Virus record (IMG/VR): IMGVR_UViG_3300020048_000033
Span: 21,156 to 85,155 of that record
Length of the DNA stretch: 64,000 bases
Source of the DNA: a virus
Taxonomy: Duplodnaviria; Heunggongvirae; Uroviricota; Caudoviricetes
Reading direction: 5' to 3' (one strand)
In this document: in pieces, positions 5,438 through 56,272 of the stretch
How the letters are laid out: the number at the start of each line of letters is the position of its first letter
Position numbering within the stretch: position 1 is the first letter of the stretch
Notes under the pieces: generated by a model
Seen by the model: the letters and a program-made list of their open reading frames with translations, nothing else
The model's database searches: none
What the model was told of the DNA's origin: nothing
Position numbers and translations under genes: made by a program

Positions 5438-5836
5438 ATGGATACGTATGATGCTTATAGTGAGTTTGAGAGAAAACAAAGAAGGACAAGTTTCATAGTT
5501 AAAACTTGTGCATTGATAGGATTACTTTTAGTTGTTTGTTCAGCTATGGCAATCTATTTTAGTGTGAAATCAAAACCTGTTGATAAGCCTTATGAAAGAG
5601 GTCAATCCTTTGTTGAAAACGCAAAAAGCCTTGAGTCAGAGGATTCCCCTGCTAAAGAACTTCTTGACCTAATTAAGCTGAAAATGGAGTATGCCTATTT
5701 CGAGGGTCAGAAGGATGCTCTTAATGGTGATTTTAGAATTAAGAAGACCTATGAGGGCGTCTATGTTTGGGTGTCTTCCTGTTGGGATGAATCGTTAGAT
5801 CCAATGCTTTATGATCCCAGTGAAGAAGAAGAGTAA
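5438..5836 (+). CDS. hypothetical membrane-anchored protein
   Basis: One N-terminal TM helix (FIVKTCALIGLLLVVCSAMAIYF). Confidence 0.4.
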   Translation: MDTYDAYSEFERKQRRTSFIVKTCALIGLLLVVCSAMAIYFSVKSKPVDKPYERGQSFVENAKSLESEDSPAKELLDLIKLKMEYAYFEGQKDALNGDFRIKKTYEGVYVWVSSCWDESLDPMLYDPSEEEE

Positions 5837-6251: not shown

Positions 6252-6266
6252 TTAAAATAATGCAAA

Positions 6267-12154: not shown

Positions 12155-12700
12155 ATGTACAGCACTTATGATACATCAAATGGAAATAGAATAACCTATG
12201 ATGGTTGGTGGGATTTAATCAGATGTATTAAATCCTATGGATATGAGCAATATATTGCTCATAATGAAAATGACTCTTTACCTTCTCGTGAGTCTACTTA
12301 TCTCCAAGACTATAATGTTTGGATTTCAAAAGCAGTCTACAAGAAACGAGATGTCTTTGTATATGATGACAATGTAATTGTTAATATATCAGAGATACGG
12401 GAAGCACTAAAGTCTTTTGATGAAAATCTCTCACCTGTAAAAAAATACAAGCACTCTTGGTCTAGAGACTGCTTATTTGAATACAGGAAAGAACCTGTCC
12501 CCTTTACTGGGAATGGAAGAAGAGCTAAGTACTATCGAAAGATACCCAAAAACAAGAACTATGTTCTCGGTGTTTTGAGTTATGTAAATGATGCAAGAAT
12601 TAGAGAAGCTTATGACCGAATTAATACTTGGTCTGACGACTTCCCTCCTCGATGCACACAAAGGTCTTGGAAAACTTTCCGAGATCACCAATATAAATAA
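12155..12700 (+). CDS. hypothetical protein
   Basis: 181-aa ORF. Confidence 0.4.
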   Translation: MYSTYDTSNGNRITYDGWWDLIRCIKSYGYEQYIAHNENDSLPSRESTYLQDYNVWISKAVYKKRDVFVYDDNVIVNISEIREALKSFDENLSPVKKYKHSWSRDCLFEYRKEPVPFTGNGRRAKYYRKIPKNKNYVLGVLSYVNDARIREAYDRINTWSDDFPPRCTQRSWKTFRDHQYK

Positions 12701-20585: not shown

Positions 20586-20726
20586 TTCCCTCTTTTTTAG
20601 GGTGGATTGAAAGAAAATATAAGGAGAAAAGCTATGAGTAATTTTAAGTTTAGTATCCTCTCTAGTCTTGCTTAACTATTGAAGCTTGTACGTAGAGAGG
20701 TTAAAGAAAACCAATCAATAGTACAA

Positions 20727-28767: not shown

Positions 28768-28839
28768 GCCCCTATGGTGAAGAGGTATCATTTCGGAATC
28801 TAAATCTGATAGTCGAAGGTTCGATTCCTTCTAGGGGCA
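28768..28839 (+). tRNA. suppressor-type tRNA, anticodon CUA (reads UAG amber)
   Basis: Acceptor GCCCCTA/TAGGGGC perfect, T-arm GAAGG-TTCGATT-CCTTC, anticodon stem TCGGA/TCTGA with 7-nt loop ATCTAAA (U33 and A37 present). Anticodon C-T-A at 28800-28802. Confidence 0.65.
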
Positions 28840-38507: not shown

Positions 38508-38554
38508 CAAGTATTAATCTTTTGGTCTTCCAGATTTTGGAAGTGGATTGAAAC
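38508..38554 (+). repeat. solitary variant CRISPR repeat unit (GGTCTTCCAGATTTTGGAAGTGGATTGAAAC) with AT-rich promoter-like lead-in
   Basis: Shares the 11-nt type I-C 5'-handle TGGATTGAAAC with the array repeat. The hairpin is replaced by CTTCCA/TGGAAG, preceded by GTATTAATCTTT. Confidence 0.55.
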
Positions 38555-38683
38555 GGCTGAATAAGTCCTGTCCTAATTCTAGGTCAAACCAGAAAAGGTC
38601 GCTATGAAATTAAATCCTAATGATTAGGTAATAGGTTTTTAACAAGTTAAAAGACTCTTAACTAATTTAAAAAGGATAATAAA

Positions 38684-39337
38684 ATGATATATAATTTTGG
38701 TAGAGTGTATGAGAGGGCAATTAGAGAAAGATATTCAGAAGGATTCGATTTAAAAGATTTGGAAGGTTTATCCTCGTTCACCAAAAGATTAGACTATGTT
38801 TCTTCTAAGTTGGCACGTATTGCCGCTGGTAGTAGTAGAATTGTATATGCAGTAGATGAAGAGAAAGTTCTCAAGGTTGCTAAAAACTCAAAAGGGTTAG
38901 CTCAGAACCTTGAGGAAATATCAGTAGGTTCGGATTATATTTCCCCTGATATCTTAGCAAAGGTTTTTGATTCATCTGAGGACGGAAAGTTTCTTGAGAT
39001 GGAAAGGGCAGATAAGATTACAGCAAAAGATTTTGAGAGACTTGTTGGAGTATCCTTAGAAAAAACTACTGAGTATCTCAGATATATTTCTTATGAGGTT
39101 CTTGGTCAACAGAAGAATAGAGGATTCCGTATTTCTAAACCTGAAAATATTGAAGAACTTGATAATAATGAGTTCCTTTGTGATTTAGTAGAGTTGGGTG
39201 GTAGCTGGAACTTCCCTTTGCCGGGCGATTTTTCAAGACTCTCTACCTATGGAAAAGTAATAAGAGATGGAATAGAACAAGTTGTAGTAATTGATTATGG
39301 TTATCGTGGGGATGTAGTTTCTCTATATGGACACTAA
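38684..39337 (+). CDS. hypothetical protein
   Basis: 217-aa ORF. Confidence 0.4.
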   Translation: MIYNFGRVYERAIRERYSEGFDLKDLEGLSSFTKRLDYVSSKLARIAAGSSRIVYAVDEEKVLKVAKNSKGLAQNLEEISVGSDYISPDILAKVFDSSEDGKFLEMERADKITAKDFERLVGVSLEKTTEYLRYISYEVLGQQKNRGFRISKPENIEELDNNEFLCDLVELGGSWNFPLPGDFSRLSTYGKVIRDGIEQVVVIDYGYRGDVVSLYGH

Positions 39338-39354
39338 ACAAGGAAAAGGTCGCT

Positions 39355-39582
39355 ATGAAATTAAAAGAATATTTGTCTGAGCTTAATGCTATGGTAGCAA
39401 ACGACTCTTCCATTCTTGAAATGGAAGTGGTAATGTCTAGTGATTCTGAGGGAAACTCTTTTCATAAAGTTGGATATACCCCAACTATAGGACATTTTTC
39501 CCGAGGGGATTTCCTCCCAAGTTCTCAATTTGAGGAAGAGGAAAGACCTATGACAGATGTTAATTCTATCTGCCTAAACTAA
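39355..39582 (+). CDS. hypothetical protein
   Basis: Start region AAAAGGTCGCTATGAAATTAAA is duplicated at 38586-38608, where a truncated MKLNPND* copy occurs. Confidence 0.3.
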   Translation: MKLKEYLSELNAMVANDSSILEMEVVMSSDSEGNSFHKVGYTPTIGHFSRGDFLPSSQFEEEERPMTDVNSICLN

Positions 39583-42853: not shown

Positions 42854-45283
42854 ATGAATTCTATTAAACCTACTTATTTATTTCCTGAGTTAGTGGCACA
42901 CCCTCCATCAAATGACAATCCTGTTAGTCAGTCTTTAGAAGAACACTTACAAGGGACTAATGAATATGCTTTATCCTTTTGTCAAAGTGAAACAGACAAG
43001 GCTTTAGTGTCTCCAATAGCTCTTGGACATGACATTGCAAAAACAACAACTTGGGTTAAAGAACATTTATGTCCTAGCTGTTGGTCTAAAAATAAAGACT
43101 TAAACCGATGTAAAGGGTGTGGATTAAAAAACCCTACTGGAAAGGATAGCCGACAAATATATCATTCACCTTATGGGGTTTTATATATGTTACTTAATTC
43201 TGTAACATCAGAGGGAAAAAAAATATTTGATATAAATCGTCTCAGAACGGAAGAGTGGGTATATTATAATATTGTGGGAGGACACCATGGAGGTTTAATG
43301 GATACTGACACTATTCAACAGAGAGTTCTTGAGATGATGTCAGATCCTAACACCCCAAATATTTTGAAAGAGATAGATTCTTTTGTAAAGTCTACAAATA
43401 TTTCTACTTCTCCAACAATTAAGTTTCCTTATAATAGGGATGATACCTTCTTTGATTTCTTTATAAAAATTAAAGAGGTATTTTCAATTCTTTGTGATGC
43501 TGACTCTTTAGATACTGAGGGACACAGTTCTCCTTCTAAAAAAGATTTTAGAAAACCCCCTAAAATTGAATGGACAAACCTTTTACAATGCTTAGATGAA
43601 TATTATTTAACTCTTTCTTTGGATGAAAACGGTAAACAAAAAAAGAGTAAGTGGAAACAAAAAAAACTTAATAAGCTTAGAAATGAATTAAGAGTGTATT
43701 CCGATAAAATTGCTTCTGCTTTTTCAAGAGGATATTTTTCAATGGAGTTTCCTACAGGGTTTGGTAAAACACTGGCAAGTATTTCTTTTGCTCTTAATCA
43801 TGCAATAAATATTGAAAAGAGAGGTGAAAGACCCATTAAAAGAATTATTTATGTCCTCCCCTTTTTGACAATAACTGCACAGACCACAAATGTACTTAAA
43901 GAGGTTTTTGGTGACGATATTAACATTTTAGAGCATCACACAGGGGCAGAATATGCTCTTAATGGTGATGATAGGAAATCTGAATATGAGCAAGCAACTT
44001 CTGATAAGGATAAAAGAAAAATACTGGCAACAGAGAATTGGGATTACCCTATAATTGTTACCACGGATGTTCAATTTTTTGAATCCGTTATGTCTGCTAA
44101 TAGAGGTTCTTCTCGTAAGATTCATAACATAGCTGATTCTATTGTTATCCTAGATGAAATACAAGTTATCTCTAACTCACTTTGGGCACCCACAATTGAA
44201 ATTCTTAAATCACTTAACAAAGTTTTAAATACTTCTATACTTTTTACTTCTGCTACTATGCCAGCATTTTCTTGGGAAAACCAGAAGTTAAAGTTTGATG
44301 GAGTTACCTCTTTAGTTGAAGATAAACAAACTCTTTATAGAAACAGCGTTCGAGTAAAATACCATGTACTTAACAATCTAAAGCCTCTTACCATTAATGA
44401 ATTAAGTACAAGGATTTTTAAGGAAAAGGGTTCCACTTTATTGGTGCTTAATACTAGGAGAACAGCTTTTGGGGCATATAGAGAACTGTGTAAGTTAAAC
44501 TCTAATAATAAATGGGATAAAATAATTTATTTAAATACCGTATTAAACTCTAAGCATCGTATGAACCTTATTAATTCTATTAAAAAAATACTGAAAGATG
44601 ATAAGTTAAAAATATTGGTTGTATCTACTCAACTGATTGAAGCCGGTGTAGATTTAGATTTTTATAATGTTTTTCGTAAAATAGCCCCATTAGAATCCCT
44701 TATTCAAAGCTCAGGAAGATGCAATAGAGAGTGGAAATATCCTTATGGGAATGTTTACATTTTTGATATTATTGATACTTTTAAGTGTGATCCTTGGTCA
44801 GACAGCTACATAGAGAGAATAGCAATAGTAGTTAATTTACTAAGAAGAACAAACTTTCTTAAATATTTTAGCCCCTTTGATTTAGGTAAATTACATAAGA
44901 GTGATATCTATGAGGAATATCATAAAAAATGCTTTTCTATTATGAGTTCTGATAAAAATAAGGTTCTAACTTCCATAAAAGCTTGCAACTTTAAAACAGC
45001 ATCTAATAATTATAAAATAATAGATTCTGAGACATCAGGGGTTGTAGTACCTTATGGAGACCTAACTTTAGATGAATATGAATATTATAGAAATAAAGAA
45101 ACAATCACAAGGGCAGACCTTAGACGACTTCAACCATATATGGTTTCTTTATTTGAGGGTGACTTAAAGAAGGTAGAAGGGATACAAATTGTAAGGACTG
45201 TAGGGAATTTATTAATGCTCAGTAAAAACCATTTGAATTGTTATAGTGAGGAAACAGGCTTATCTAATTTAATTTTTAATTAG
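42854..45283 (+). CDS. cas3: Cas3 (HD nuclease + SF2 helicase), type I
   Basis: N-terminal HD domain (HPPS...LEEHL...ALGHDIAKTT...GGHHGG), helicase motif I FPTGFGKT, motif II VILDEIQ, motif III TSATMP, C-terminal helicase lobe. 809 aa. Preceded by TTGTTAATATAGT. Confidence 0.85.
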   Translation: MNSIKPTYLFPELVAHPPSNDNPVSQSLEEHLQGTNEYALSFCQSETDKALVSPIALGHDIAKTTTWVKEHLCPSCWSKNKDLNRCKGCGLKNPTGKDSRQIYHSPYGVLYMLLNSVTSEGKKIFDINRLRTEEWVYYNIVGGHHGGLMDTDTIQQRVLEMMSDPNTPNILKEIDSFVKSTNISTSPTIKFPYNRDDTFFDFFIKIKEVFSILCDADSLDTEGHSSPSKKDFRKPPKIEWTNLLQCLDEYYLTLSLDENGKQKKSKWKQKKLNKLRNELRVYSDKIASAFSRGYFSMEFPTGFGKTLASISFALNHAINIEKRGERPIKRIIYVLPFLTITAQTTNVLKEVFGDDINILEHHTGAEYALNGDDRKSEYEQATSDKDKRKILATENWDYPIIVTTDVQFFESVMSANRGSSRKIHNIADSIVILDEIQVISNSLWAPTIEILKSLNKVLNTSILFTSATMPAFSWENQKLKFDGVTSLVEDKQTLYRNSVRVKYHVLNNLKPLTINELSTRIFKEKGSTLLVLNTRRTAFGAYRELCKLNSNNKWDKIIYLNTVLNSKHRMNLINSIKKILKDDKLKILVVSTQLIEAGVDLDFYNVFRKIAPLESLIQSSGRCNREWKYPYGNVYIFDIIDTFKCDPWSDSYIERIAIVVNLLRRTNFLKYFSPFDLGKLHKSDIYEEYHKKCFSIMSSDKNKVLTSIKACNFKTASNNYKIIDSETSGVVVPYGDLTLDEYEYYRNKETITRADLRRLQPYMVSLFEGDLKKVEGIQIVRTVGNLLMLSKNHLNCYSEETGLSNLIFN

Positions 45284-45335
45284 CCCCTTATTTATCTATA
45301 TTTCTTGTTCCAGAAACTGCTAAAATAATTAGTGA

Positions 45336-45382
45336 AAAAGTTTTGAACTTTTCCTGAATATCCTATATATTATATAGGTAGA
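45336..45382 (+). promoter_or_regulatory. class A promoter-like motif, copy 5 (between cas3 and cas5c)
   Basis: AAAAAGTTTTGAACTTTTCCTGAATATCCTATATATTATATAGG. Confidence 0.5.
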
Positions 45383-45481
45383 GTTCTATTGAATATTAAA
45401 CCTCAATACACTTAATTAAACAAATGTACTTGTCAAAAATATGTCAAGTACATTATACACTCTAAAAAGGATTAAACTTAA

Positions 45482-46156
45482 ATGAATGCAATATCCTCAA
45501 AATATGGTGCTCTTAAATCAAGGGTAGAGCTTGTGGCTTATGGAGAAAACGCTTGCTTTAAGGACCCAGTATGGAAAACAGAGGGTCTTACCTACCCATG
45601 TATCACCCCATCGGCTTCAAGAGCTATACTAGAGTCGGTGTTTTGGCATCCTCCGATGTATTATGATATTGTGTCAATAGAGGTTTTAAAGCCTATAATA
45701 AAAACACTGACCTGTGTAGTTGAACCCAATACCTATGGTATAGACGGAGTTTTGAGACACTATATGTATCTAAGAGATGTATCCTATCATATTGTTGCTG
45801 ATATAGTTATGAAGAATGGTGTCACAATAGATGAAAATAAAAATGCAATAAAGTATATGAGTATTTTTAATAGGAGACTACAGAAAGGTCAAACTTTTAA
45901 GGCTCCTTTCCTCGGAATAAGTCAATGCTTATGTGATGTTAGGGAATATGTTCCTCTTGAGGATATCCCTACAAAAGAAAATTATTATATAGGAAATATG
46001 CTATTAGAGATGAATCATAAAAAATCTGGGGTAGAGCCAATATTTATGGATGAGGCTCAAATAAAAAATGGCGTACTTTGTAATGGGGAACAGTCCCTTG
46101 AAGACGCCATACTAGAAAAAACATCTTATAGAAAAGAGGAAGTGTATATTGCGTGA
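45482..46156 (+). CDS. cas5c: Cas5c (Cas5d) crRNA-processing subunit, type I-C
   Basis: Family-conserved blocks VELVAYGENACFKDP, ASRAILESVFWHP, HYMYLRDVSYHIVADI, FKAPFLGISQC align with Cas5d. Confidence 0.8.
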   Translation: MNAISSKYGALKSRVELVAYGENACFKDPVWKTEGLTYPCITPSASRAILESVFWHPPMYYDIVSIEVLKPIIKTLTCVVEPNTYGIDGVLRHYMYLRDVSYHIVADIVMKNGVTIDENKNAIKYMSIFNRRLQKGQTFKAPFLGISQCLCDVREYVPLEDIPTKENYYIGNMLLEMNHKKSGVEPIFMDEAQIKNGVLCNGEQSLEDAILEKTSYRKEEVYIA

Positions 46157-48128
46157 ACTTTATGATTTTTACAAGGTGTATTCCACTACTGAAACTTTCA
46201 AGGAAAATTACGACAGTAGTATTTGGTTTGATAGAGGTACGCCCTCAGCAATTATTGATATTGATAAGAACCATAAGACTACCTTCCTACCACTTGGAGG
46301 AGACTCAGCTAAACTTCATCGTAGAGAATTCTTCCCGGGGAAAGGTACAAGATTTTCATTAGATGCTACTAAAAGGGTTTTAGGTGGTATTGAGGTTAAT
46401 GACAAGGACGGTTCTTTTACTTTTGAAGAAAACTTTGGGTCGGAAGTTTTATCTCAGGTAACAGCTATATTAAAGTATAAAAATTATTTCTTAGATAATC
46501 TTTCTCTTTTTACAAAAAAAGAAGTTTTAGTAGCACAGGAAATTTTTGATGCAATACTTTCAATATATGTAAGTCCTAAGTGTAAAGATTTTTCTGATAT
46601 TAAGGTTTCAAAAACCTTAAAGAAACTAAGAAAAGATTTCTGCACCCATTTTAAGGATGATAAAAATGTTGAAGGTAAACTTATAGGTATCTCTTATCAA
46701 GGAGAGCTAATTCTTGAAAATAAAGTAATTTCCAAGATTGTAGAGAGTTTTAAAGAGTATGAGTTGGGTCTTATAAATAAGAAAACTCCTTTTAGAAATT
46801 GTCCCATTTGTAAAAAAAACACAAACCTTTATAATATTAATTCCTATGGGGCTATAAGAAAAAGTTTACTAGGTGGAAGTATTAATGGGTGTTTTCCCAT
46901 TAGTTACAATGAACCACAATTTGAGTCTTATGGAATGAAAGGTAACTTAAACTCATCAATTTGTTATGATTGTGGAAAAAAAATTGTAAGGTCTTTAGAA
47001 ATACTTTGTGGGATAGACAAAATATATGTCCCCTTCAAGAACTCTAAAGGTGAAGACAAGTTAAAGCCCTCATTTAAGGAGACTCGTTTCAGATTGGATG
47101 TCCGTGGCGCAAATGAATATGCTATTCTGGTATATGCGACAGATGCTAATGGGAGAGTCTTGGATATGACTAAAGAAATATCCTTAGATACTGTTAGAGA
47201 AGTTGATTTGAAATTAGATGAGTCCTCTATTATTTCTTCCTATAAAAGTTTAAATGATAGTAGTTCTTCCAGTGAAGCAATAATCCCACTTAATATTACA
47301 GCCAATATTCTTGTGGTAGCATCAAATAGTGCAAGAATGGTAATAAGAGATCATTGTTGTATTAATCTTAATAGCTTAAGGAGTTCCATTTCTCGTTGGA
47401 GGGAAGCTACCCAAGGACAAACCTTTGAGGGATATGTTGATGCTAAAGGAAACCAAAAATGGAGGGCTATAAAATATTATCCTTCACTTAATACTATCTT
47501 AGAAAACTTAGGTGCTTTTGGTAAAAATGATAAAGTTTATTATTCTGTAATAGATACAGTTCAACAAATGGTGTTTCGTGGAATAACTGAAAATATTTCT
47601 TTTAAGGATACAATACTTAATAACATTCAATCCTCTTTCTTTACAAGAGGGGATAGACAGTATGAAATATCTAAGGATTCATTCTGTGTTGTACGTTTGG
47701 TTTATAATGCGGGTAAGAATAAGGAGAGTTTGATGAGTCCGAGTCTTGATGAGACTAATGAAAAAATGGGGTATCTTTTTGGGAGAGCTTTTTCTATAGC
47801 ATCTTCTATTATGTATCATGTAAATGATAAAGATACTTATGGTATTGATTCTCTTTATGATCAATGTTTGTCACAACCTAAATTGGCTATAGAAAACATA
47901 ACCAGTTCTTTAATGTATTATGTATCTAAGGGTAAAAAAGACCCTGATATAGGATTTTTTATTGTATCCCTTCACAATAAGTATATGGAACTTATTTCTA
48001 AAGCATTGCAGGTGGGAGTTCCTATCATAATGAAACAGGACGATAAACTACTTTTTATTGGTGGAATGTGTTCACAAAATATGTATAATAAAACTGGTGG
48101 AAAAACCACTAAAGTAAAGGAAGACTAA
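46149..48128 (+). CDS. cas8c: Cas8c (Csd1) large subunit, type I-C
   Basis: 659-aa ORF overlapping the cas5c stop by 8 nt, in the position and with the size expected for Cas8c. Internal CxxC...CxxC zinc-finger-like pairs. Confidence 0.65.
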   Translation: MRELYDFYKVYSTTETFKENYDSSIWFDRGTPSAIIDIDKNHKTTFLPLGGDSAKLHRREFFPGKGTRFSLDATKRVLGGIEVNDKDGSFTFEENFGSEVLSQVTAILKYKNYFLDNLSLFTKKEVLVAQEIFDAILSIYVSPKCKDFSDIKVSKTLKKLRKDFCTHFKDDKNVEGKLIGISYQGELILENKVISKIVESFKEYELGLINKKTPFRNCPICKKNTNLYNINSYGAIRKSLLGGSINGCFPISYNEPQFESYGMKGNLNSSICYDCGKKIVRSLEILCGIDKIYVPFKNSKGEDKLKPSFKETRFRLDVRGANEYAILVYATDANGRVLDMTKEISLDTVREVDLKLDESSIISSYKSLNDSSSSSEAIIPLNITANILVVASNSARMVIRDHCCINLNSLRSSISRWREATQGQTFEGYVDAKGNQKWRAIKYYPSLNTILENLGAFGKNDKVYYSVIDTVQQMVFRGITENISFKDTILNNIQSSFFTRGDRQYEISKDSFCVVRLVYNAGKNKESLMSPSLDETNEKMGYLFGRAFSIASSIMYHVNDKDTYGIDSLYDQCLSQPKLAIENITSSLMYYVSKGKKDPDIGFFIVSLHNKYMELISKALQVGVPIIMKQDDKLLFIGGMCSQNMYNKTGGKTTKVKED

Positions 48129-48129
48129 A

Positions 48130-49191
48130 ATGGCAAAAGCAAAAGCAAAAGAACCTGAACAGGAAGTTGAAATACTTAAAGATGAAGAGTTTTTCGCCAC
48201 CAATGGAGAACTTGTAAACAACCGGTATGATATTATGATTTTAGTGGAAGCTATTAACTCAAATCCAAGTGGTGACCCCGGTAATGGAGGGAAACCTCGT
48301 ATAGACCATAACGGTCGTGGAGAATGGGAGAATACTTCTTTAATTTATAAAATAAAGACAAGGATAGAAATCCTTGCAGAACAGAAAGGTTGGAAAGGTT
48401 TTAATCGCCTTGTAAAAAAAGGTAGTATTATTTCTGAGGGTTTGAAGCAATTCTCAAAATATGGCTCAGATATAAATCTTCAACAGCGCAAAGTGGTAGA
48501 TACCTTTTTTGATATAAGGATGTTCGGAGGTATGCTCAGAACAAAGGATGGAAAATCTTCTACTCCAGAGGACAAAACTTCCGAAATTAAAAAAGAAGAT
48601 TCTGGTAAAAAAACTGTAGAAAAGGGTGGACAGGGTTGCGGTACCTTAACTGGTTCAATCCATTTCTGCAAAGGTGTTTCTATTGATCCAGTGATTGTAA
48701 AAACTACCCGTATTACTCGGGTATGTGCTTCAAATCCTGAAAGGCTAAGAGGAATCAGAAAAGAGGATTATACTGAGATGGGTGAAAACTCTGTAGTTCA
48801 TTATGGTCTTTATCAATTTAAGGGTAGTATCGATCCTATTCAGTCCCAAAAAAGCTTTTTTACTAAAAAAGATTGCAAAATCTTTTTTAGAAGTTGTGCC
48901 TCTTTTACAAAGCACGATGCAAGTTCTATTAGAGGGGAGCTTAATATTCGTAGAGTTATTATCTGGAAACATGATAGTATCTTAGGTAGTACTCCTAAAA
49001 ATCAGAACTTTAATAGACTTAAAATTGCCCTCAAGGATGGAATTGATTCTCCTGAAAAGTATGAGGACTATAATATAGCTCTCGATCTTGAGAACCTTAG
49101 CCCCCATCTTAGTGTCATTGATATCAATGATAAAGAGATTGCGGAAGCTTGGGATGATGAAACTCTTGACTTTGATAAAAACTTTATGTAA
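48130..49191 (+). CDS. cas7c: Cas7c (Csd2) backbone subunit, type I-C
   Basis: NRYDIMILVEAINSNPSGDPGNGGKPRIDH matches the Cas7/Csd2 N-terminal glycine-rich signature. 353 aa. Confidence 0.85.
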   Translation: MAKAKAKEPEQEVEILKDEEFFATNGELVNNRYDIMILVEAINSNPSGDPGNGGKPRIDHNGRGEWENTSLIYKIKTRIEILAEQKGWKGFNRLVKKGSIISEGLKQFSKYGSDINLQQRKVVDTFFDIRMFGGMLRTKDGKSSTPEDKTSEIKKEDSGKKTVEKGGQGCGTLTGSIHFCKGVSIDPVIVKTTRITRVCASNPERLRGIRKEDYTEMGENSVVHYGLYQFKGSIDPIQSQKSFFTKKDCKIFFRSCASFTKHDASSIRGELNIRRVIIWKHDSILGSTPKNQNFNRLKIALKDGIDSPEKYEDYNIALDLENLSPHLSVIDINDKEIAEAWDDETLDFDKNFM

Positions 49192-49203
49192 CTTTTTGAG
49201 TAA

Positions 49204-49256
49204 ATTGGAGTTATTTTTATTAAGTGCGAACCTACTGTTACCAGAAAATCCCTTGG
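49204..49256 (+). promoter_or_regulatory. leader-region stem-loop (GTGCGAACC...GGTTCGCAC) between cas7c and the array
   Basis: 9-bp inverted repeat. A second GAGGTTCGCACTAAG copy lies 70 nt downstream. Could be the cas-operon terminator/attenuator or a leader structure. Confidence 0.3.
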
Positions 49257-49367
49257 AGGTTCGCACTCCTTGCCCTGTATAGACTTAGGTGATTTTATAT
49301 TAAAAAACTTGGTTACAAACTATCATAATTCTGAGGTTCGCACTAAGTATAGGGTAAGTCTATATCA

Positions 49368-49389
49368 TGTAAGGGTTTATATATTAGTA
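49368..49389 (+). promoter_or_regulatory. array promoter-like element (AAGGGTTTATATATTAGTA) abutting repeat 1
   Basis: Same GGTT(A/T)ATATA..TTAGTA motif that precedes every variant-repeat unit. Confidence 0.4.
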
Positions 49390-50956
49390 GTCACTCCCCG
49401 TGCGGGGGTGTGGATTGAAACTTTTGAGGTAGCACTGACAGAACCAATTAGAGATGTCACTCCCCGTGCGGGGGTGTGGATTGAAACCTTGCTAATACAT
49501 TCAACTTTTCAACATCAAGTGTGTCACTCCCCGTGCGGGGGTGTGGATTGAAACAAGCTGTCCAACTTTGCCCTCATCCTTTGTTGGTCGTCACTCCCCG
49601 TGCGGGGGTGTGGATTGAAACTTGGGTGGTATTGGTTCAGCAATCGGCGCTTTGTGTCACTCCCCGTGCGGGGTGTGGATTGAAACTAAAAAGAAATGGA
49701 AAACCCGTTGACACCACAGAGTCACTCCCCGTGCGGGGGTGTGGATTGAAACTTTCAGGAACAAGACCCACAAGGTACGATTGGAAAAGTCACTCCCCGT
49801 GCGGGGGTGTGGATTGAAACTAACTCTCACCTTTTTTCAGCCGGTTTCACAATTGGTCACTCCCCGTGCGGGGTGTGGATTGAAACTCATACAGTGTTGC
49901 TCTGGTTGCACCTCTACACACAGTCACTCCCCGTGCGGGGGTGTGGATTGAAACAAGGAACTGAAAAATGACTTTCGAGATTTGAGGGCGTCACTCCCCG
50001 TGCGGGGGTGTGGATTGAAACCTTGGGGCAAAGTATTTCCCTTGTAGCGATTGAAAGTCACTCCCCGTGCGGGGGTGTGGATTGAAACGTGTATCACTCG
50101 AAAGTACAACATGGTTGTGTAAGTCACTCCCCGTGCGGGGGTGTGGATTGAAACTGAAATGGGTGGACTCGGGGAAATACTCACTAAAGTCACTCCCCGT
50201 GCGGGGGTGTGGATTGAAACGAGTAAGTAGCAGGACAGGGGTTTTCTTTTGTGTAAGTCACTCCCCGTGCGGGGGGTGTGGATTGAAACGAGTTTGACAC
50301 CGACCTAGTTACCCTTGAACTCACGTCACTCCCCGTGCGGGGGTGTGGATTGAAACAACTCGAATCCCCGTTTGTATTTGGATTTTAGCAAGTCACTCCC
50401 CGTGCGGGAGTGTGGATTGAAACTACTCAGTTGATGGACTCTATTGGCAAGGTACTCGTCACTCCCCGTGCGGGAGTGTGAGAGCTGAGTAATAAAACTA
50501 AGTGTTAATATAATATTAGTACTGGTCTTCCTAATTTTGGAAGTGGATTGAAACCCTTTAAGTTCCCCATGCATCATACAAATAAACATGTCACTCCCCG
50601 TGCGGGGGTGTGGATTGAAACCACTACAAAGACGGGCGAGTCAGACAGAATCCGGTGTCACTCCCCGTGCGGGGGTGTGGATTGAAACTAAGTAGTTATT
50701 GGATTCCGCTTAGAATCATTAATGTCACTCTCCGTGCGGGAGTGTGGATTGAAACCGAATATCAGGTATGGATATCATCGAGGCATTAGTGTCACTCCCC
50801 GTGCGGGGGTGGGGATTGAAACCAAGCCGTTGTTCAAGCTTTGCAGGATTCCAAGGTGTCACTCCCCGTGCGGGAGGTGTGGATTGAAACATGACTGGTT
50901 TAGCTGTAATTAATGGGTCGAAGAGTCACTCCCCGTGCGGGAGTGTGGATTGAAAT
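49390..50956 (+). CRISPR. type I-C CRISPR array, 23 repeats (GTCACTCCCCGTGCGGGGGTGTGGATTGAAAC, 31-33 nt) and 22 spacers of 33-36 nt; repeat 17 (50448-50554) interrupted by a 73-bp promoter + variant-repeat insertion
   Basis: Repeat starts at 49390, 49456, 49523, 49590, 49656, 49721, 49789, 49856, 49923, 49990, 50057, 50123, 50189, 50257, 50325, 50392, 50448 (split), 50590, 50657, 50724, 50791, 50858, 50925. Terminal ATTGAAAC is typical of I-C repeats. Distal repeats accumulate variants (GGGAGTG, CTCCG, TGGGG, terminal GAAAT). Confidence 0.9.
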
Positions 50957-50992
50957 GTAATATCAGAGGATAGTCTGTAATATTTTCTTAAT

Positions 50993-51020
50993 CACCACAA
51001 TCCTCTTGGGATTGTGGTGA
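50993..51020 (+). terminator. perfect 10-bp stem-loop (CACCACAATC-ctcttgg-GATTGTGGTG) after the last array repeat
   Basis: Inverted repeat seen directly in the sequence. No strong T-tract follows. Confidence 0.3.
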
Positions 51021-51054
51021 AGATGTGTAAGTGAAATTAAAATTAGGGTTAATA

Positions 51055-51420
51055 TAATATCAGTATTGGTCTTCTAGAAATTAGAAGTGGATTGAAACAG
51101 TACACAAGTCTACAAGAGTCTATTCTTCATTGTCACTTCCCGTGCGGAAGTGTGGAATTAAAATTAGTATTAATATAATATTAGTACTGGTCTTCCAGAA
51201 TTTGGAAGTGGATTGAAACGAGGCAAATACTCAACTTATATCTGGGACTGTGCGTCACTCCCAGTGGTGGAGTGTGGATTGAAACGATGCCATGGTCAAC
51301 AAAATGGATTTAGACCTGAGTCACTCCCCCCGTGAGGGAGTGTGGATTTTAATACGATATAATGAATCAGATAGGGTGCTAATGATAAGTCACTCCCGTG
51401 CGGGAGTGACGTTAATCAAA
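51055..51420 (+). CRISPR. two degenerate mini-arrays, each starting with a promoter-like element and a variant repeat, followed by spacers and decayed canonical repeats
   Basis: Unit A: promoter TTAGGGTTAATATAATATCAGTA, variant repeat at 51078-51108, spacer, degenerate repeat GTCACTTCCCGTGCGGAAGTGTGGAATTAAAAT at 51142-51174. Unit B: promoter TTAGTATTAATATAATATTAGTA, variant repeat at 51189-51219, then degenerate repeats at 51254, 51320 and 51389. Confidence 0.65.
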
Positions 51421-51462
51421 GCAATTCACATTAGGGTTAATATAGTTTTATAGGAGTACATA

Positions 51463-51789
51463 ATGGAAGGTTACTTAGGTGATAAATTAATTCCGGTCGC
51501 ACAGACCCCCTATGCAGGATATTCAAAAGAAGACTGGATATTATACTGGATAGGAAGTTATGGTCAAATAGATGGAAGTCACCACAAACAGTGGTTGATA
51601 GACCAAGTGGCTCAAATTTGTAATGGCGTAGAAATAATTATTAAGCAAGCATCTTGGTCGAATGGGCAAACCGAATGGAGAATTTCATTGGGTGATGAAA
51701 ATGACCCCTATAAAAAATGGGTTCATCAGATGAAGGTTAATGAAGACGGTGAAGAAGAATATGATTATGATACAGGGGTAGCACCATAA
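51463..51789 (+). CDS. hypothetical protein
   Basis: 108-aa ORF preceded by a TTAGGGTTAATATAG motif. Confidence 0.35.
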   Translation: MEGYLGDKLIPVAQTPYAGYSKEDWILYWIGSYGQIDGSHHKQWLIDQVAQICNGVEIIIKQASWSNGQTEWRISLGDENDPYKKWVHQMKVNEDGEEEYDYDTGVAP

Positions 51790-51978
51790 ATGGAACAATT
51801 ATCAATTGATGTAAGATATGATTTGGAACATATGGAAGTCACCCTAAGTATTTCAGATTGGCAGAAGTTATTAAAGGCTTTTGAAACTCATAATCCTGTG
51901 ATACAGAATTGGGAAAATAACTCTCCACAAATTCTAGAAGAGTTTAAACAAAAAGTAACTCTTAATTCCACTTGTTAG
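51790..51978 (+). CDS. hypothetical protein
   Basis: Short ORF coupled to the upstream gene. Confidence 0.3.
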   Translation: MEQLSIDVRYDLEHMEVTLSISDWQKLLKAFETHNPVIQNWENNSPQILEEFKQKVTLNSTC

Positions 51979-51989
51979 AAGGATGAGAC

Positions 51990-52169
51990 ATGGCAAAAAT
52001 AGGAATAATTGAAAATTGCGATTGCTGTAATAATTTTGATAATTCATATTGGGGTTATGAGGAAAAATGTAAATTACTTAACCGAAGAATACCTCAGAAA
52101 AATTTAGGTAATCCTCATGATATTCCAAGCGACTGTCCACTTGAAGATGCTCCAAAAGTAAAGGAATAG
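51990..52169 (+). CDS. small zinc-ribbon protein (paralog of 52173-52340; both end in DAPKVKE)
   Basis: Not in the supplied ORF track (59 aa). MAKIGIIENCDCCNNF...SDCPLEDAPKVKE. Confidence 0.3.
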   Translation: MAKIGIIENCDCCNNFDNSYWGYEEKCKLLNRRIPQKNLGNPHDIPSDCPLEDAPKVKE

Positions 52170-52172
52170 AAA

Positions 52173-52340
52173 ATGTCAAGTTATAGAAAACCTACAGAAT
52201 ATGTATGCCCTGAATGTGGCATCAAAAATATGGATGATACTTGTGATGGATTTTTCGAGTGTGATGAATGTGGAAATATTATTTCTGCACCAGACAATTT
52301 CCAACTACAAGTTCAAGATGCCCCAAAAGTAAAGGAATAA
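52173..52340 (+). CDS. small zinc-ribbon protein (paralog of 51990-52169)
   Basis: 55 aa. MSSYRKPTEYVCPECG...CDECGN...QDAPKVKE. Confidence 0.3.
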   Translation: MSSYRKPTEYVCPECGIKNMDDTCDGFFECDECGNIISAPDNFQLQVQDAPKVKE

Positions 52341-52343
52341 TAG

Positions 52344-52664
52344 ATGAAAGGTTTTGTGAGTTTAACCCAATTAGCAATTGCATTTGGAAAGTATATTATA
52401 GGATACAGACCGGATGATGATGGTTGGAGTCCTGAAGATCAAGAAGCACATGATTTTGTTTTGTACGATAGAGTATATGATTTTGAGGAAAAACCTTCTG
52501 TAGAAAAACGTCTTAGAGATTATCAAATTGACAGTATAAGAATTAGTGAGGATGGTTTTAATCTGAATGGTCCGTACACCTGCTCATTTTTTGGAAAAAC
52601 TATTGAGGATGCATTAGAGACTGTTGATAGGGAATTGAAAAATGCGAAAAATAAAAAAGCCTAA
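52344..52664 (+). CDS. hypothetical protein
   Basis: 106-aa ORF. Confidence 0.35.
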   Translation: MKGFVSLTQLAIAFGKYIIGYRPDDDGWSPEDQEAHDFVLYDRVYDFEEKPSVEKRLRDYQIDSIRISEDGFNLNGPYTCSFFGKTIEDALETVDRELKNAKNKKA

Positions 52665-52887
52665 AATTGGTGAGTATGTACTTGTTACAAAATACTCTGA
52701 CAAAGACCCAAATGACAGATGGTACGTATCGACGATAGAGTCTATTACTACAACCATTTCTGGGACTACCTGCCGAGTAGATGGTTCCAAACTCGATTGG
52801 AAACATATTTATCGAATCTCAAAAGAAGAGGGTGAAGCATGGTTGAAACTCAATGGATATATACAGCTTAGAAGTGAAGCTTATTGA
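52642..52887 (+). CDS. hypothetical protein
   Basis: 81-aa ORF overlapping the upstream gene end. Confidence 0.3.
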   Translation: MRKIKKPKIGEYVLVTKYSDKDPNDRWYVSTIESITTTISGTTCRVDGSKLDWKHIYRISKEEGEAWLKLNGYIQLRSEAY

Positions 52888-53097
52888 GGACGCATTGGAC
52901 ACAGCAGATAGGGAGTTAAATAATGGCAAAGTTTAAGGTTGATGTAGAAAAGATGACTGAATCACAAGTTAGGGAGACGCTTCAAGAGATTATCAAGGAA
53001 CTTGATACACTCGACGGAGAAGATTTTTTTGGAACCGAGGGATGGAAACATTTCATGGGTTTTGAGGACTAGGAATTGTTGAAACTCTGGGGGATAT

Positions 53098-53373
53098 ATG
53101 CTTGAGTTTTTAAAAAAGAAAAAGAAAATTATACCTGTGAGAAGTGGAGCCTATTGTAGATGTAGTATATGCACTCATGTAGGATATGCGTATGGCATTG
53201 CTTCAAGTGAAGTAGGGGTGAGTCATCCAAGTTGCGCTGTATGTGGATTTAACATGGGACTTGTTCAAATTCAACCCTTTCAAGAGTGTACATGCAAATC
53301 CTGCAAGTTGAAAAAGAAACTTAGGGTTAATATAAGTATCTGTCTTCCAGAAATTGGAAGTGGATTGAAATGA
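53098..53373 (+). CDS. hypothetical Cys-rich protein (3' end runs into a solitary repeat unit; boundary uncertain)
   Basis: Multiple CxxC pairs. The ORF stop lies inside the variant repeat at 53343-53371. Confidence 0.2.
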   Translation: MLEFLKKKKKIIPVRSGAYCRCSICTHVGYAYGIASSEVGVSHPSCAVCGFNMGLVQIQPFQECTCKSCKLKKKLRVNISICLPEIGSGLK

Positions 53374-53476
53374 TAGAGCAAGAAGAACTTGGGCAGAAGA
53401 ATTAATGAACAAGGATATTGTGGTTGCACATTATTAATGAACGTGAGTCACTCCTGTGCGGGAGTGAGGGTTGAAA
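53322..53476 (+). repeat. solitary mini-array: promoter-like TTAGGGTTAATATAAGTATCT + variant repeat (53343-53371) + 74-nt spacer-like segment + degenerate canonical repeat (53446-53476, GTCACTCCTGTGCGGGAGTGAGGGTTGAAAT)
   Basis: Direct sequence match to the array repeat 5'-handle and hairpin. Confidence 0.55.
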
Positions 53477-53588
53477 TAGCACAGCGACTGGACAGTAAAG
53501 AAACTGGACCGGCACAAACCAATCTGATGCTCCTTACAAAAAATGTAACCGTCTGTCCCGAGTATGTTAGATTAAAAGGAATTACCGT

Positions 53589-54056
53589 ATGAGTAAAGGA
53601 AGTAGTAGAGAATCTACACTAGAGCATAAGCGTATTGTTGTAGAGTTGATGACATCAGTTGTTACAGAATTGTTGCAACGTGCCTTGGTACATGACAATA
53701 CAAAAATGGAAGATCCAGAACTATCTTTGTTTGATGAGTTCACTCCGAAACTGGCGAATTGTACATATGGGTCAGACACTTACAATTCCTTTCTTGAAGG
53801 ATTAAAACCTGCGTTAGACCATCATTATGCAAGGTATCGTCATCATCCAAATCATTTTAAACGTGGATGCAAAGATATGAACTTAATTGATATCATGGAA
53901 ATGCTGGTGGATTGGAAAGCGGCTACCCTTCGTCACAATGATGGGAATCTTCTAAAGAGTCTTGAGTTCAATAGAACAAGATTTGAGTTAGAGGAAGTAA
54001 CTCTTTATGATATTTTATGTAATACTTCGGAATTATTTGAAAAACACAATACTTGA
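53589..54056 (+). CDS. hypothetical protein (His-rich, possible metal-dependent hydrolase)
   Basis: HDNTKMEDPE ... DHHYARYRHHPNHF. Family not confidently recognised. Confidence 0.35.
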   Translation: MSKGSSRESTLEHKRIVVELMTSVVTELLQRALVHDNTKMEDPELSLFDEFTPKLANCTYGSDTYNSFLEGLKPALDHHYARYRHHPNHFKRGCKDMNLIDIMEMLVDWKAATLRHNDGNLLKSLEFNRTRFELEEVTLYDILCNTSELFEKHNT

Positions 54057-54090
54057 AAAAAGTTTGTTAATATAATAGTGAGGAGACAAC

Positions 54091-54309
54091 ATGAAAGAAA
54101 CTTTGACAACCATTGATAATTTTAAGTCTAAGCATATTGGAAATCTTGAAGTAAGTTTTTTAGTTACCAAGGAAAATACAAGTATACGAATTGTGCACTT
54201 GGCTACTGGTGATATAGTAAATAAAAGTTTCACCAAAGAATCTATCAATACAGGAAGTATAAACGTTATTCAAGTATGGTTTGATGAGATTGAAAAAAAG
54301 TTGGAATAG
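54091..54309 (+). CDS. hypothetical protein
   Basis: 72-aa ORF preceded by a GTTAATATAAT motif. Confidence 0.3.
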   Translation: MKETLTTIDNFKSKHIGNLEVSFLVTKENTSIRIVHLATGDIVNKSFTKESINTGSINVIQVWFDEIEKKLE

Positions 54310-54508
54310 ATTAATGGGGATGACGTAGGGTTCGATCTTAAGTGAAGTAACAGGATGCAAATGCACTAGAAAAAACGTCTTGAGTAGCTTAAGAGACTCG
54401 GGGGCAGTTCCCGACATCTCCAAATAGGGTATGATGAAAATTGTCAGATAAAAACTGATGTGGTAAACATGGAACGCAAAACGTGCTCCGTCATTAATAA
54501 TAAAACTT

Positions 54509-54556
54509 AAGGTAATATTAGTACGGGTCTTCCAAAAATTGGAAGTGGATTGAAAT
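54509..54556 (+). repeat. solitary variant CRISPR repeat unit with promoter-like lead-in (TAAGGTAATATTAGTA + GGTCTTCCAAAAATTGGAAGTGGATTGAAAT)
   Basis: Same hairpin/handle architecture as the variant repeats in the mini-arrays. No downstream repeat. Confidence 0.5.
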
Positions 54557-54658
54557 AATGATAATAATACCCATGAAATTGAATGGTATAGACATCACAA
54601 ACTGTATCTTGAAAATTTAAAACTTAAGATGACAAATACTAAAGAAGAGGAATGACAA

Positions 54659-55150
54659 ATGACCCGAGATGAAATACTTGCTAAAAAGTGTGATGAGAAG
54701 TATGAAGATTTGATAAAGGTAAACTCAGCAACCTGCTGGGTAGTAGATACAAATAGAATAGAAATTAAAGAATATGCAGTAATGGGGTATGGAAGAACCT
54801 GTGTAGGAATAACCACCTCAACTAGTTCTGTTTCCAATAAGGTAACAGAGTCAAAAGTGTATGAATATCTTTTTACTGTTATTTCACTGGAAGAAGAAAC
54901 CTTTGGTCTTGAGAGTTTTGTTAGCTACGATAAAATTTTTCTCAATAAGAAATTTGCACTTATTCAATTACTGAATTCAATGATAGCAAATCTTACGTAT
55001 GAATCAAACTCAGATAAATTGTCAATTCTAACTAAGATAGGACATAGTAAACTTAACGTACTTGATGAACTTAGAGAGATTGACGACTTTGATAAAGAAG
55101 GGTTTGATACCTATTTTTATGAAAAATTAAATATAATAGAAACTGTATAA
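54659..55150 (+). CDS. hypothetical protein
   Basis: 163-aa ORF. Confidence 0.4.
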   Translation: MTRDEILAKKCDEKYEDLIKVNSATCWVVDTNRIEIKEYAVMGYGRTCVGITTSTSSVSNKVTESKVYEYLFTVISLEEETFGLESFVSYDKIFLNKKFALIQLLNSMIANLTYESNSDKLSILTKIGHSKLNVLDELREIDDFDKEGFDTYFYEKLNIIETV

Positions 55151-55168
55151 CATACAAGGAATAAAAAA

Positions 55169-55480
55169 ATGAAACAAATAAGCTATTCACAGTTCGAGAG
55201 TTATTTTCAGGTAATATTTGATTATCGTCAGAGGTCTACTGAAATTTCTGATGCAGTACATATTCTTTTTGGGAATACGAGTACAGGGTTTAATGAGAGT
55301 GCTGACAAACTCTGTGATGCACACGTGGATCTTATACAGGATTACCTTGATATTAAAACTCCAGAAATACTTTCATGGTTCATCTATGAAAATGACATTG
55401 GGTATAATGAGCTTTCTCTGAATGATATTGAGATAACTTGCCTTGAAGACCTTTATAATTATTTGGTAAAAAATGACTAA
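55169..55480 (+). CDS. hypothetical protein
   Basis: 103-aa ORF. Confidence 0.35.
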   Translation: MKQISYSQFESYFQVIFDYRQRSTEISDAVHILFGNTSTGFNESADKLCDAHVDLIQDYLDIKTPEILSWFIYENDIGYNELSLNDIEITCLEDLYNYLVKND

Positions 55481-55907
55481 CAAGCCTCTACCCCCTTATG
55501 GAACTATTCATGTAGAATCTGTCTTCGGAGACTATATTCTTTCCCCTCCACCGTGTGATAGGGATTCACCTTTTAATAAAAAGTTATCTTCCATTAAAAG
55601 TGCAGTTAGGAAGAAACTTTATATAGAAGAAGTCATGTTATTGTCAGAAGAAGATAGGTATAAGCTATGTTCCTCCTCAAAGCGAGACTTGTGTGAAAAC
55701 TCAGTAGTTATCTTTGAGGAAAACGGTAAGAAGATACTTGGAAGAATTATGACTGATACAGAGGTGGGAATAATATTTCCCGATTTTGATAATACTGCTC
55801 TTTTAAATTATGAGTATGTAGAAAGTCTTTTATGTAATCAGCATCGTTTTATGATTGAGAGTAAGTTGGTAACTAAGTTGGGAGATTATGATGAGTTCTT
55901 CAAATGA
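55473..55907 (+). CDS. hypothetical protein
   Basis: 144-aa ORF. Confidence 0.4.
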   Translation: MTNKPLPPYGTIHVESVFGDYILSPPPCDRDSPFNKKLSSIKSAVRKKLYIEEVMLLSEEDRYKLCSSSKRDLCENSVVIFEENGKKILGRIMTDTEVGIIFPDFDNTALLNYEYVESLLCNQHRFMIESKLVTKLGDYDEFFK

Positions 55908-56217
55908 GTTTTCTGTAGGAAGTACCTGCCATTTTTTTAAGAATGATGAAATACATATTTCTGTTGGGTTTTATTCTGGAACTATATTTTCAATAAAAAC
56001 TTTAAGTTTTGAGATAAAGTTGGAAGATGGAACTATAGTTGAGGAGTATCAGGAATATTGCTTTCACTCGTTTGATGAAGCTAAAGAGGGTTTGAAAAAA
56101 GCCTACACTGAGATTCATTCTGGTTATATCGAGAGTGCAAGAAAAAATTATGAGTCTGAAATAAATGATTTGAAAAGAGTCTTAGCCATTGTTGAAAATG
56201 TGAAAGACCTTGCTTAA
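55888..56217 (+). CDS. hypothetical protein
   Basis: 109-aa ORF. Confidence 0.35.
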   Translation: MMSSSNEFSVGSTCHFFKNDEIHISVGFYSGTIFSIKTLSFEIKLEDGTIVEEYQEYCFHSFDEAKEGLKKAYTEIHSGYIESARKNYESEINDLKRVLAIVENVKDLA

Positions 56218-56230
56218 AATAATTCGTTAG

Positions 56231-56272
56231 AAAGTTTTGAACTTTTCCTGAAAATCCTATATATTATATAAG
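56231..56272 (+). promoter_or_regulatory. class A promoter-like motif, copy 6
   Basis: AATTCGTTAGAAAGTTTTGAACTTTTCCTGAAAATCCTATATATTATATA. Confidence 0.5.

Follow-up and report, generated by a model that had tools for sequence, protein, structure and literature searches.

The 64,000-nucleotide (nt) stretch of DNA analyzed here (hereafter, the window; positions 21,156 to 85,155 of the IMG/VR virus record IMGVR_UViG_3300020048_000033) is a piece of a large AT-rich phage (around 35% GC) with 28 transfer RNA (tRNA) genes, the contig of which is recorded at 163,769 bp. At 53.3 and 54.5 kb, past the end of a CRISPR array preceded by type I-C cas genes, the window carries two small units in which a promoter is directly followed by a variant CRISPR repeat. 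We found that this variant retains the handle of the canonical array repeat on an exchanged hairpin and that it occurs together with its promoter both within the array and outside it.

The 30-nt variant repeat, GTCTTCCAGAAATTGGAAGTGGATTGAAAY, is present in six copies in the window, all on the + strand, which start at 38525, 50525, 51069, 51190, 53342, and 54527. Five of them are recovered at ≤3 mismatches, against 0.00 expected (100 shuffles), and the sixth, at 50525, has 4 mismatches. The variant is laid out as a 2-nt GU overhang, a stem of 6–7 bp (CUUCCA/UGGAAG), a GAAAU pentaloop, and an 11-nt handle (UGGAUUGAAAY). The handle is that of the canonical repeat, the GC-rich stem of which has been swapped for CUUCCA/UGGAAG; overall, the two repeats are about 60% identical, the common part being the last 12 and the first 3 nt. 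Type I-C repeats that serve as Cas5c substrates have a stem of about 7 bp with a pentaloop, flanked by overhangs of 2 nt on the 5′ side and 11 nt on the 3′ side, the latter starting with U-G-G; Cas5c reads chiefly the stem base and the following U-G-G, while tolerating changes in the loop and the 5′ overhang (PMC8524198). The variant repeat shows this layout throughout and its hairpins fold as expected; as it keeps the stem base, the U-G-G and the 11-nt overhang, it is a plausible Cas5c substrate.

A promoter had been assigned to each unit in the original prediction made from the letters of the DNA, and the motif behind this claim is clearly enriched. The extended -10 element GTTAATATA, usually with TG before it (TGTTAATAT), occurs 19 times against 1.3 expected, 18 times on the + strand, and its copies are mostly localized just upstream of open reading frame (ORF) starts, typically 13–35 nt before the start codon. 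In the case of cas3 and of the gene at 34280, it is so near the start that the mRNAs would be leaderless. Between the TAATAT -10 hexamer and the repeat lie exactly 8 nt in all promoter-bearing copies (5/5, or 5/6 of the copies overall), which puts the predicted transcription start site (TSS) 0–2 nt before the repeat. We also observed a second, highly conserved promoter-like family, AAAGTTTTGAACTTTTCCTGAAAATCCTATATATTATA (TTGAAC, 17 nt, TATATT), with copies of about 40–70 nt, all on the + strand, at 6265, 19407, 29044, 36820, 45335, 56229, and 58575, one of them being immediately upstream of cas5c.

In the 53.3-kb unit, the extended -10 motif (53326..53334, +; TAATAT at 53328–53333, predicted TSS around 53340–53341) is followed by the variant repeat GTCTTCCAGAAATTGGAAGTGGATTGAAAT with the handle UGGAUUGAAAU (53342..53371, +; 6-bp stem, fold of -6.3 kcal/mol), a 75-nt spacer-like segment, psiS (53372..53446, +), and a degenerate canonical repeat, GTCACTCCTGTGCGGGAGTGAGGGTTGAAAT (53447..53477, +), whose hairpin is intact and whose handle is mutated to AGGGUUGAAAU. 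These are the four elements originally proposed for this unit, and shuffles exclude a chance origin of the two repeats; the coordinates stand, except that the spacer measures 75 rather than 74 nt and the unit ends at 53477 rather than 53476. The degenerate repeat scores 40 against the canonical one, a value reached by none of the shuffled sequences (0/500), and has lost one base and changed others, yet it forms a perfect 8-bp hairpin (-11.6 kcal/mol, z = -3.2). The decay is asymmetric, since the 5′ handle is intact and 3 of the 11 handle positions are mutated in the 3′ repeat; it is the pattern expected if the RNA between the repeats is the selected product. Located 1.9 kb past the array end and off the main array, the unit agrees with the definition of a mini-array (1–2 spacers between two repeat-like sequences), save for its 75-nt spacer, which exceeds the 20–60 bp given for such arrays (PMC10120712). 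It also overlaps the end of a small ORF, as had been noted beforehand, namely the last 17 codons of the 91-aa ORF at 53098–53373.

The 54.5-kb unit comprises a TAATAT hexamer (54513..54518, +; predicted TSS around 54525–54526) and a variant repeat with the hairpin fold (54527..54556, +), and the 40 nt upstream of it are paralogous to the cassettes found within the array. No canonical repeat was detected up to 145 nt downstream, as local alignments to three repeat versions were equalled or beaten by 307–395 of 500 shuffles, in line with the earlier description of this unit as a promoter plus variant repeat only. The predicted handle-tagged RNA downstream (54557..54658, +) would be the 5′ untranslated region (UTR) of a 163-aa gene (54659–55150); no terminator was found in 54557..54658, and its fold is no better than that of shuffles. 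Another copy of the variant repeat, at 38525..38554 (+), follows the tRNA region and possesses neither a TAATAT promoter nor a 3′ repeat. A decayed 3′ repeat after 54556 or 38554 was considered and rejected as indistinguishable from chance by shuffles. Both 54527–54556 and 38525–38554 have the properties of a solitary repeat (no second or partial repeat within about 100 bp, intergenic, promoter-proximal), which the 53.3-kb unit does not. The view of the two units as dispersed single-spacer arrays applies to the latter, which has one spacer, and not to the 54.5-kb unit, which is a solitary repeat.

In the neighborhood of the 38525 copy, a 23-nt perfect direct repeat (a ribosome-binding site plus ATGAAATTAAA) at 38592–38614 and 39343–39365 flanks a 217-aa gene (38684–39337). 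It has the look of a gene cassette that was inserted where the 75-aa gene at 39355 begins, parting the latter from the repeat at 38525. In turn, at 20590–20613, a weak hairpin (CCCT/AGGG) followed by the exact handle TGGATTGAAAG was observed immediately after a tRNA-Asn gene. The 11-mer GTGGATTGAAA is otherwise confined to repeats, and this site may represent a further, much more diverged solitary repeat.

The position of these copies relative to genes raises the question of a role in cis, in which Cas5c would process or bind a site where an mRNA begins, coupling the stability or translation of the mRNA to Cas protein levels, the downstream genes being the DUF5662 gene at 53589, the 163-aa gene at 54659 and, originally, the 75-aa gene at 39355. 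Each of the three stand-alone copies has a promoter on one side and, without a terminator, the next + strand ORF on the other, the start codon being 49–217 nt away; no other copy of the phage promoter motif separates unit and gene, and a Cascade-sized footprint (about 42 nt) at 38525 would reach the ribosome-binding site at +38 to +43. Yet, given the 13–35 nt by which other promoters of this class precede start codons, such long leaders look like inserted RNA genes and not like UTRs. Moreover, homologs of the DUF5662 protein (74–79% identity) are encoded in other large phages with no repeat, mini-array or shared promoter motif upstream, the neighboring genes being 35–115 nt away; hence, the mini-array is not an intrinsic part of the DUF5662 gene, and for the same reason these phages were rejected as informative relatives. 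To our knowledge, the use of a CRISPR repeat as a cis-acting 5′-UTR element has no natural precedent, and we consider this explanation rather unlikely.

Conservation was expressed as mean pairwise identity among the six copies of the variant repeat. It amounts to 98% in the 3′ stem arm and handle (repeat positions 14–29), 89% over the whole repeat, 58% in the 30 nt upstream, which include the promoter, and 24–28%, i.e., background, in more distant flanks. Substitutions among the copies fall in the loop, apart from one stem pair at 51069 changed on both sides from C-G to U-A, although with six sequences this covariation is statistically weak (78/500 shuffles are as good). Such a profile is hard to reconcile with non-functional debris, that is, with fragments that recombination dispersed from the trailing end of the array, a duplicated promoter carrying the repeat along, since the repeat, above all its handle region, is far better conserved than the promoter and the flanks (around 26%), the spacing between the -10 box and the repeat is invariant, and the one stem change is compensated. 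Still, gene conversion among the copies could mimic part of this conservation, repeats are prone to recombination, and PMC10120712 regards many of the stand-alone repeats close to cas loci as degraded remnants. The degenerate 3′ repeat of the first unit, the absent one of the second, evidence of cassette shuffling nearby and the lack of targets would likewise fit debris, which on balance appears unlikely to us.

The remaining three copies of the variant repeat are located in the trailing third of the array, where each forms a cassette with its promoter. The first (50504..50554, +) sits between a canonical repeat without a handle and spacer S17; the second (51048..51098, +), with the stem CUUCUA/UAGAAG that carries the compensatory change, precedes S23; and the third (51169..51219, +) precedes S24 and S25. 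In every case the cassette comes after a canonical repeat or another hairpin without a handle, and is followed by a normal spacer of 33–35 nt and then a canonical repeat. From this arrangement, the cassette reads as an internal promoter and 5′-handle donor for the next CRISPR RNA (crRNA), its role as a handle donor being evident from the loss of the handle in the upstream canonical repeat. These in-array cassettes are the strongest clue to the role of the solitary copies. As a separate observation, a hairpin of a third type (CACCACAATCC-TCTTG-GGATTGTGGTG) occupies the position of a repeat hairpin at 50993–51019, 36 nt past the repeat at 50925–50956, and suggests recurrent hairpin replacement in this array. 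The terminal degenerate repeat (51320–51353), in which the handle is mutated to TGGATTTTAAT, leaves a hairpin with a U-tract that was flagged as terminator-like by the scan; it is a possible array terminator.

The phage encodes the type I-C interference genes (42854..49191, +) immediately upstream of the array, as recognized by Pfam and NCBIfam profiles and, for Cas5c, by homologs in the PDB. They comprise cas3 with HD and helicase domains (42854–45283), cas5c (45482–46156), cas8c/csd1 (46149–48128), and cas7/csd2 (48130–49191), all on the + strand. The presence of these cognate genes in the same genome as the variant repeat supports assigning the units to a type I-C system. The Cas5c profile is matched with 108.8 bits (cut-off of 85), while Csd1, Csd2 and the Cas3 helicase and HD domains are recognized mostly under the equivalog cut-offs, pointing to divergent proteins; for Cas7, no relative above 27% identity was found among 5.8 billion proteins. 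In Cas5c, residues F54, K124, and Y125 (by our own count) align with the catalytic Y46, K116, and H117 of the Bacillus halodurans enzyme, positions at which Cas5c of Neisseria lactamica deviates as well. As the catalytic Tyr and His positions thus appear substituted, the nuclease activity of the phage Cas5c is not assured.

Directly after cas7 comes a 198-nt leader (49192–49389, +), followed by the array itself (49390..51410, +, the end being approximate), which is built of the canonical repeat GTCACTCCCCGTGCGGGGGTGTGGATTGAAAC and about 25 spacers of 33–36 nt. The adaptation genes cas1, cas2, and cas4 are absent between cas7 and the array, as they are from the vicinity of most huge-phage CRISPR loci according to passages of PMC7162821. 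The canonical repeat has a 2-nt difference to the repeat that comes first behind cas1c, cas2 and the leader in a metagenome-assembled genome (MAG) of Lachnospiraceae (type I-C) and is also close to the repeats of two Paenibacillus brevis arrays; besides, the inverted-repeat motif GTGCGAA...TTCGCAC is common to the phage leader and that of the Lachnospiraceae type I-C locus. Thus, judging by its sequence, the phage repeat is bacterial in type, in contrast to the very divergent Cas proteins, and the array, with its bacterial-type repeat and leader, looks borrowed from bacteria. A solitary canonical-type I-C repeat (GTCACTCCCCTTTTGGGGGTGTGGATTGAAAG) was also noticed in a Robinsoniella MAG (JALEVQ010000028.1, 6673–6703), with no second copy in 8 kb, making it a candidate bacterial or prophage solitary repeat unit (SRU).

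As for the role of the two units, we tentatively favor, at somewhat under an even chance, the reading that both belong to the type I-C system of the phage as stand-alone members, in which a promoter-plus-handle cassette gives rise to crRNA-like RNAs. Because Cas3, Cas5c, Cas8c, and Cas7 of the phage are encoded 4–10 kb upstream, a guide or regulatory crRNA-like RNA, as had been suggested at the outset, is the most economical reading; the mini-array anatomy and the crRNA-serving cassette within the array speak for that suggestion, the lack of a target for either segment against it. The host-type extended -10 promoter would start transcription 0–2 nt before the variant repeat, the 11-nt handle UGGAUUGAAAU would be left on the downstream RNA, and Cas5c, Cas7, and Cas8c would assemble on this handle. 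At 53.3 kb, the degenerate downstream repeat would supply a 3′ hairpin, so that the crRNA-like RNA would be complete in itself, driven by its own promoter, and equipped with an unusually long guide of 75 nt; at 54.5 and 38.5 kb, the product would be a handle-tagged RNA with the 3′ end set by Cas7 coverage and trimming. We propose that the units are hard-wired, non-acquired guides; instead of ordinary interference spacers, they would most likely be crRNA-like RNAs with a regulatory role or a partial match. Indeed, a good upstream repeat with a degraded distal repeat near a cas locus is a described form of regulatory mini-arrays (PMC10120712).

Two variations on this scheme seem unlikely. In one, the cassette would be a portable promoter and handle that tags arbitrary transcripts for the phage's Cas5c and Cascade; outside the array it would not yield conventional guides but mark the 5′ ends of specific early mRNAs (those of the DUF5662, 163-aa and 75-aa genes), whose stability or translation would be controlled through cleavage of the leader by Cas5c and assembly of Cascade on it, amounting to a natural use of CRISPR RNA processing for regulation in cis; in the other, an extended Cascade would form, with about 14 Cas7 subunits on the 75-nt guide. 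The sum 75 = 33 + 7×6 fits seven extra Cas7 subunits, as a matter of arithmetic and not of evidence.

Several points weigh against the units being stand-alone crRNA-like genes. For the spacer-like segments of both, the searches yielded neither a protospacer in INPHARED, PLSDB or IMG/VR nor a TTC-flanked seed of at least 8 nt within the 64-kb window, the phage cas promoters included. The 75-nt spacer is beyond both the 20–60 nt of reported mini-arrays and the 33–36 nt of this array. In the 3′ repeat of the first unit, the first base past the cleavage site is A and not U, which may impair cutting by some Cas5c enzymes (PMC8524198), and the phage Cas5c itself has F54 and Y125 in place of the catalytic Y46 and H117 of B. 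halodurans. The repeats at 54527 and 38525 have no 3′ repeat or terminator and run into protein genes. Finally, no related phage is available in INPHARED, IMG/VR or the protein collection against which conservation could be judged.

The competitor or host locus that the original prediction had envisaged as a target did not emerge from our searches. The 25 array spacers and the six spacer-like segments gave no match at E ≤ 1 among INPHARED phages (BLAST) or PLSDB plasmids, and four patterns derived from the spacer-like segments (first or middle 23 nt, position 6 masked) were absent from IMG/VR. In the window, no spacer-like segment has a TTC-flanked seed of ≥8 nt and nothing was seen at the cas3 or cas5c promoters; self-regulation of the CreR type within the window was rejected on these grounds. 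Likewise, a spacer match to a related virus, typical of viral mini-arrays of the inter-virus conflict type, was not found in INPHARED or IMG/VR, collections without relatives of this phage.

The only hit, an ambiguous one, comes from JGI metagenome contigs, where the first 23 nt of the 75-nt segment match one locus present in two samples (Ga0265798_10001771, 12574–12596; Ga0265780_10001877, 5617–5639). The match covers 22/23 nt, with the sole mismatch at position 6 and TTC, the usual type I-C protospacer-adjacent motif (PAM) according to passages of PMC8406640, directly before it. About one random match is expected for 20 specified bases in the JGI collection, the size of which is our estimate; the PAM and two extra matching positions add a coincidence of roughly 1 in 400. 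The surrounding genome is that of a bacterium with 66% GC, where the site falls into a terminator tail that separates convergent genes; this contig is matched by no other spacer. We regard the match as probably a coincidence, though a statistically uncomfortable one. AT-rich jumbo phages of GC-rich hosts, such as phiKZ, do exist, and for this reason it is left unexplained rather than dismissed.

Another proposal is that the units silence host immunity in the manner of Cracr arrays, with the spacer-like segments pairing over at least 9 PAM-proximal nt with a host type I-C cas or creT promoter and Cascade repressing it. The bacterial type I-C fragments examined give no PAM-flanked seed, the phage's own cas promoters are unmatched, and silencing a compatible host system is less necessary for a phage that brings Cas3 and Cascade along. 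Despite the psiR-psiS-psiR form, the degenerate repeats and the odd spacer length, which match CreA, CreR, and Cracr, and despite type I-C Cracr arrays reported in phages (10.1101/2024.10.29.618823; PMC10120712), we hold this proposal to be very unlikely.

A related proposal is that the units are Racr-like decoys, i.e., transcribed solitary repeats that bind host type I-C Cas5c and Cas7 in dead-end complexes and so weaken the CRISPR immunity of the host, or that titrate or buffer the phage's own Cas proteins. The copies at 54527 and 38525, true solitary repeats directly after a promoter or in an RNA-rich operon, have the defining look of Racr and SRUs, and a type I-C precedent co-transcribed with a protein gene is provided by RacrIC1 with acrIC5 (PMC10651486). 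A type I-C host is plausible, considering the 2-nt difference between the canonical phage repeat and that of Lachnospiraceae. However, the 25-spacer array and Cascade of the phage need the same handle, so that a handle-mimicking decoy would poison its own system, and the same cassette is used productively inside the array. In addition, the 53.3-kb unit is not solitary, the variant, at about 60% identity to the canonical repeat, stays under the 90% criterion of SRUfinder, and a cas operon is 5–10 kb upstream. Pfam and PHROGs searches of the neighboring ORFs returned only DUF5662 and families of unknown function, with no acr homolog recognized. Altogether, a decoy function strikes us as improbable, the units sharing with Racr (Camara-Wilpert et al., 2023; PMC10651486) and Cracr (10.1101/2024.10.29.618823) the promoter-driven repeat mimic, the existence of type I-C examples and co-transcription with protein genes, and differing in that the phage itself depends on the handle, which is at odds with an anti-CRISPR role.

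Among known systems, the units most resemble the cas-adjacent regulatory mini-arrays CreA and CreR (Shmakov et al., 2023, PMC10120712; Liu et al., 10.1101/2023.03.10.532045). Like these, they are stand-alone and separated by a few kb at most from a type I cas locus, with a functional-looking upstream repeat, a degraded distal repeat and a spacer of non-canonical length; solitary repeats accompany the mini-array, and the cognate Cascade is expected to take up the product. Yet, in contrast to CreA and CreR, they belong to a phage locus, their upstream repeat is hairpin-swapped and fused to its own promoter instead of being a near-copy of the array repeat, the spacer has 75 nt compared with 20–60 nt, and the searches gave no partial match to nearby genes or to the cas promoters.

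Virus genomes, too, are described as containing one-spacer arrays and single repeats close to promoters (Faure et al., 2019, as recounted in passages of PMC10651486 and PMC11656645). As presented there, viral mini-arrays and SRUs come without cas genes and borrow the host Cas proteins, their repeats are near-identical to those of the host, and their spacers are directed against related viruses. The phage studied here differs from that description in having its own Cas3, Cascade and 25-spacer array, in lacking a detected viral target, and in the 5′ repeat being a private variant absent from IMG/VR and JGI contigs. The huge-phage CRISPR-Cas systems (Al-Shayeb et al., 2020; PMC7162821) are, as far as the passages of that paper go, similar in the large tRNA-rich phage, the repeats resembling bacterial ones and the type I-C-like, Cas5-processing system with no cas1, cas2 or cas4 adjoining the array. 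In the type I-C variant described in those passages, a helicase replaces Cas3, whereas Cas3 here keeps its HD domain; the same passages make no mention of promoter-fused variant repeats in or outside an array.

In view of this literature, the claim that dispersed mini-arrays are unusual was overstated, since there is ample documentation of mini-arrays and solitary repeats, both in viruses and beside cas loci (PMC10651486; PMC10120712). Regulators resembling crRNAs are known as well. What is new is the hairpin-swapped repeat fused to a promoter at fixed spacing and used in and outside the array, the occurrence of this cassette in a phage with its own complete type I-C effector, and the 75-nt guide.

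If the units are expressed and loaded, the phage would possess hard-wired, individually promoted guides beside a bacterial-looking array, in a minimal design consisting of a -10 box, 8 nt, a hairpin of free sequence and a fixed 11-nt handle. This would define what a repeat must really have for Cas5c and Cascade of type I-C, supply type I-C tools with a compact cassette for expressing single guides, and provide a test case for gene regulation, as well as interference, by phage-borne CRISPR systems. Searches based on repeat similarity, e.g., with the 90% threshold of SRUfinder, would miss hairpin-swapped repeats.

With regard to relatives of the phage, megablast of the 49–56 kb region against INPHARED returned nothing, neither the variant nor the canonical repeat occurs in IMG/VR, the former being missing from JGI metagenome contigs too, and the Cas7 and DUF5662 proteins have no close relatives in IMG/VR. 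The other contigs that contain Cas7, Cas3 and two further looked-up proteins of the window are Logan assemblies of run SRR7760394. We compared one of these, which is 100% identical over 50657–56245, including both units, and about 98% identical over the cas region, with the array collapsed. In this contig (positions 3846–4849, corresponding to window positions 49192–51462), repeat 1 is joined to spacer 19, with a loss of about 1.27 kb that is either an assembly collapse or a real deletion variant.

Within the window, tRNAs were the only matches of Rfam models at gathering thresholds; relaxing to E ≤ 5 in 49–55.2 kb gave no meaningful match. One of the 28 tRNAs (28768–28839) has the anticodon CTA, labelled "Pyl" by ARAGORN; this amber suppressor is a hint that TAG may be recoded in a part of the genome.

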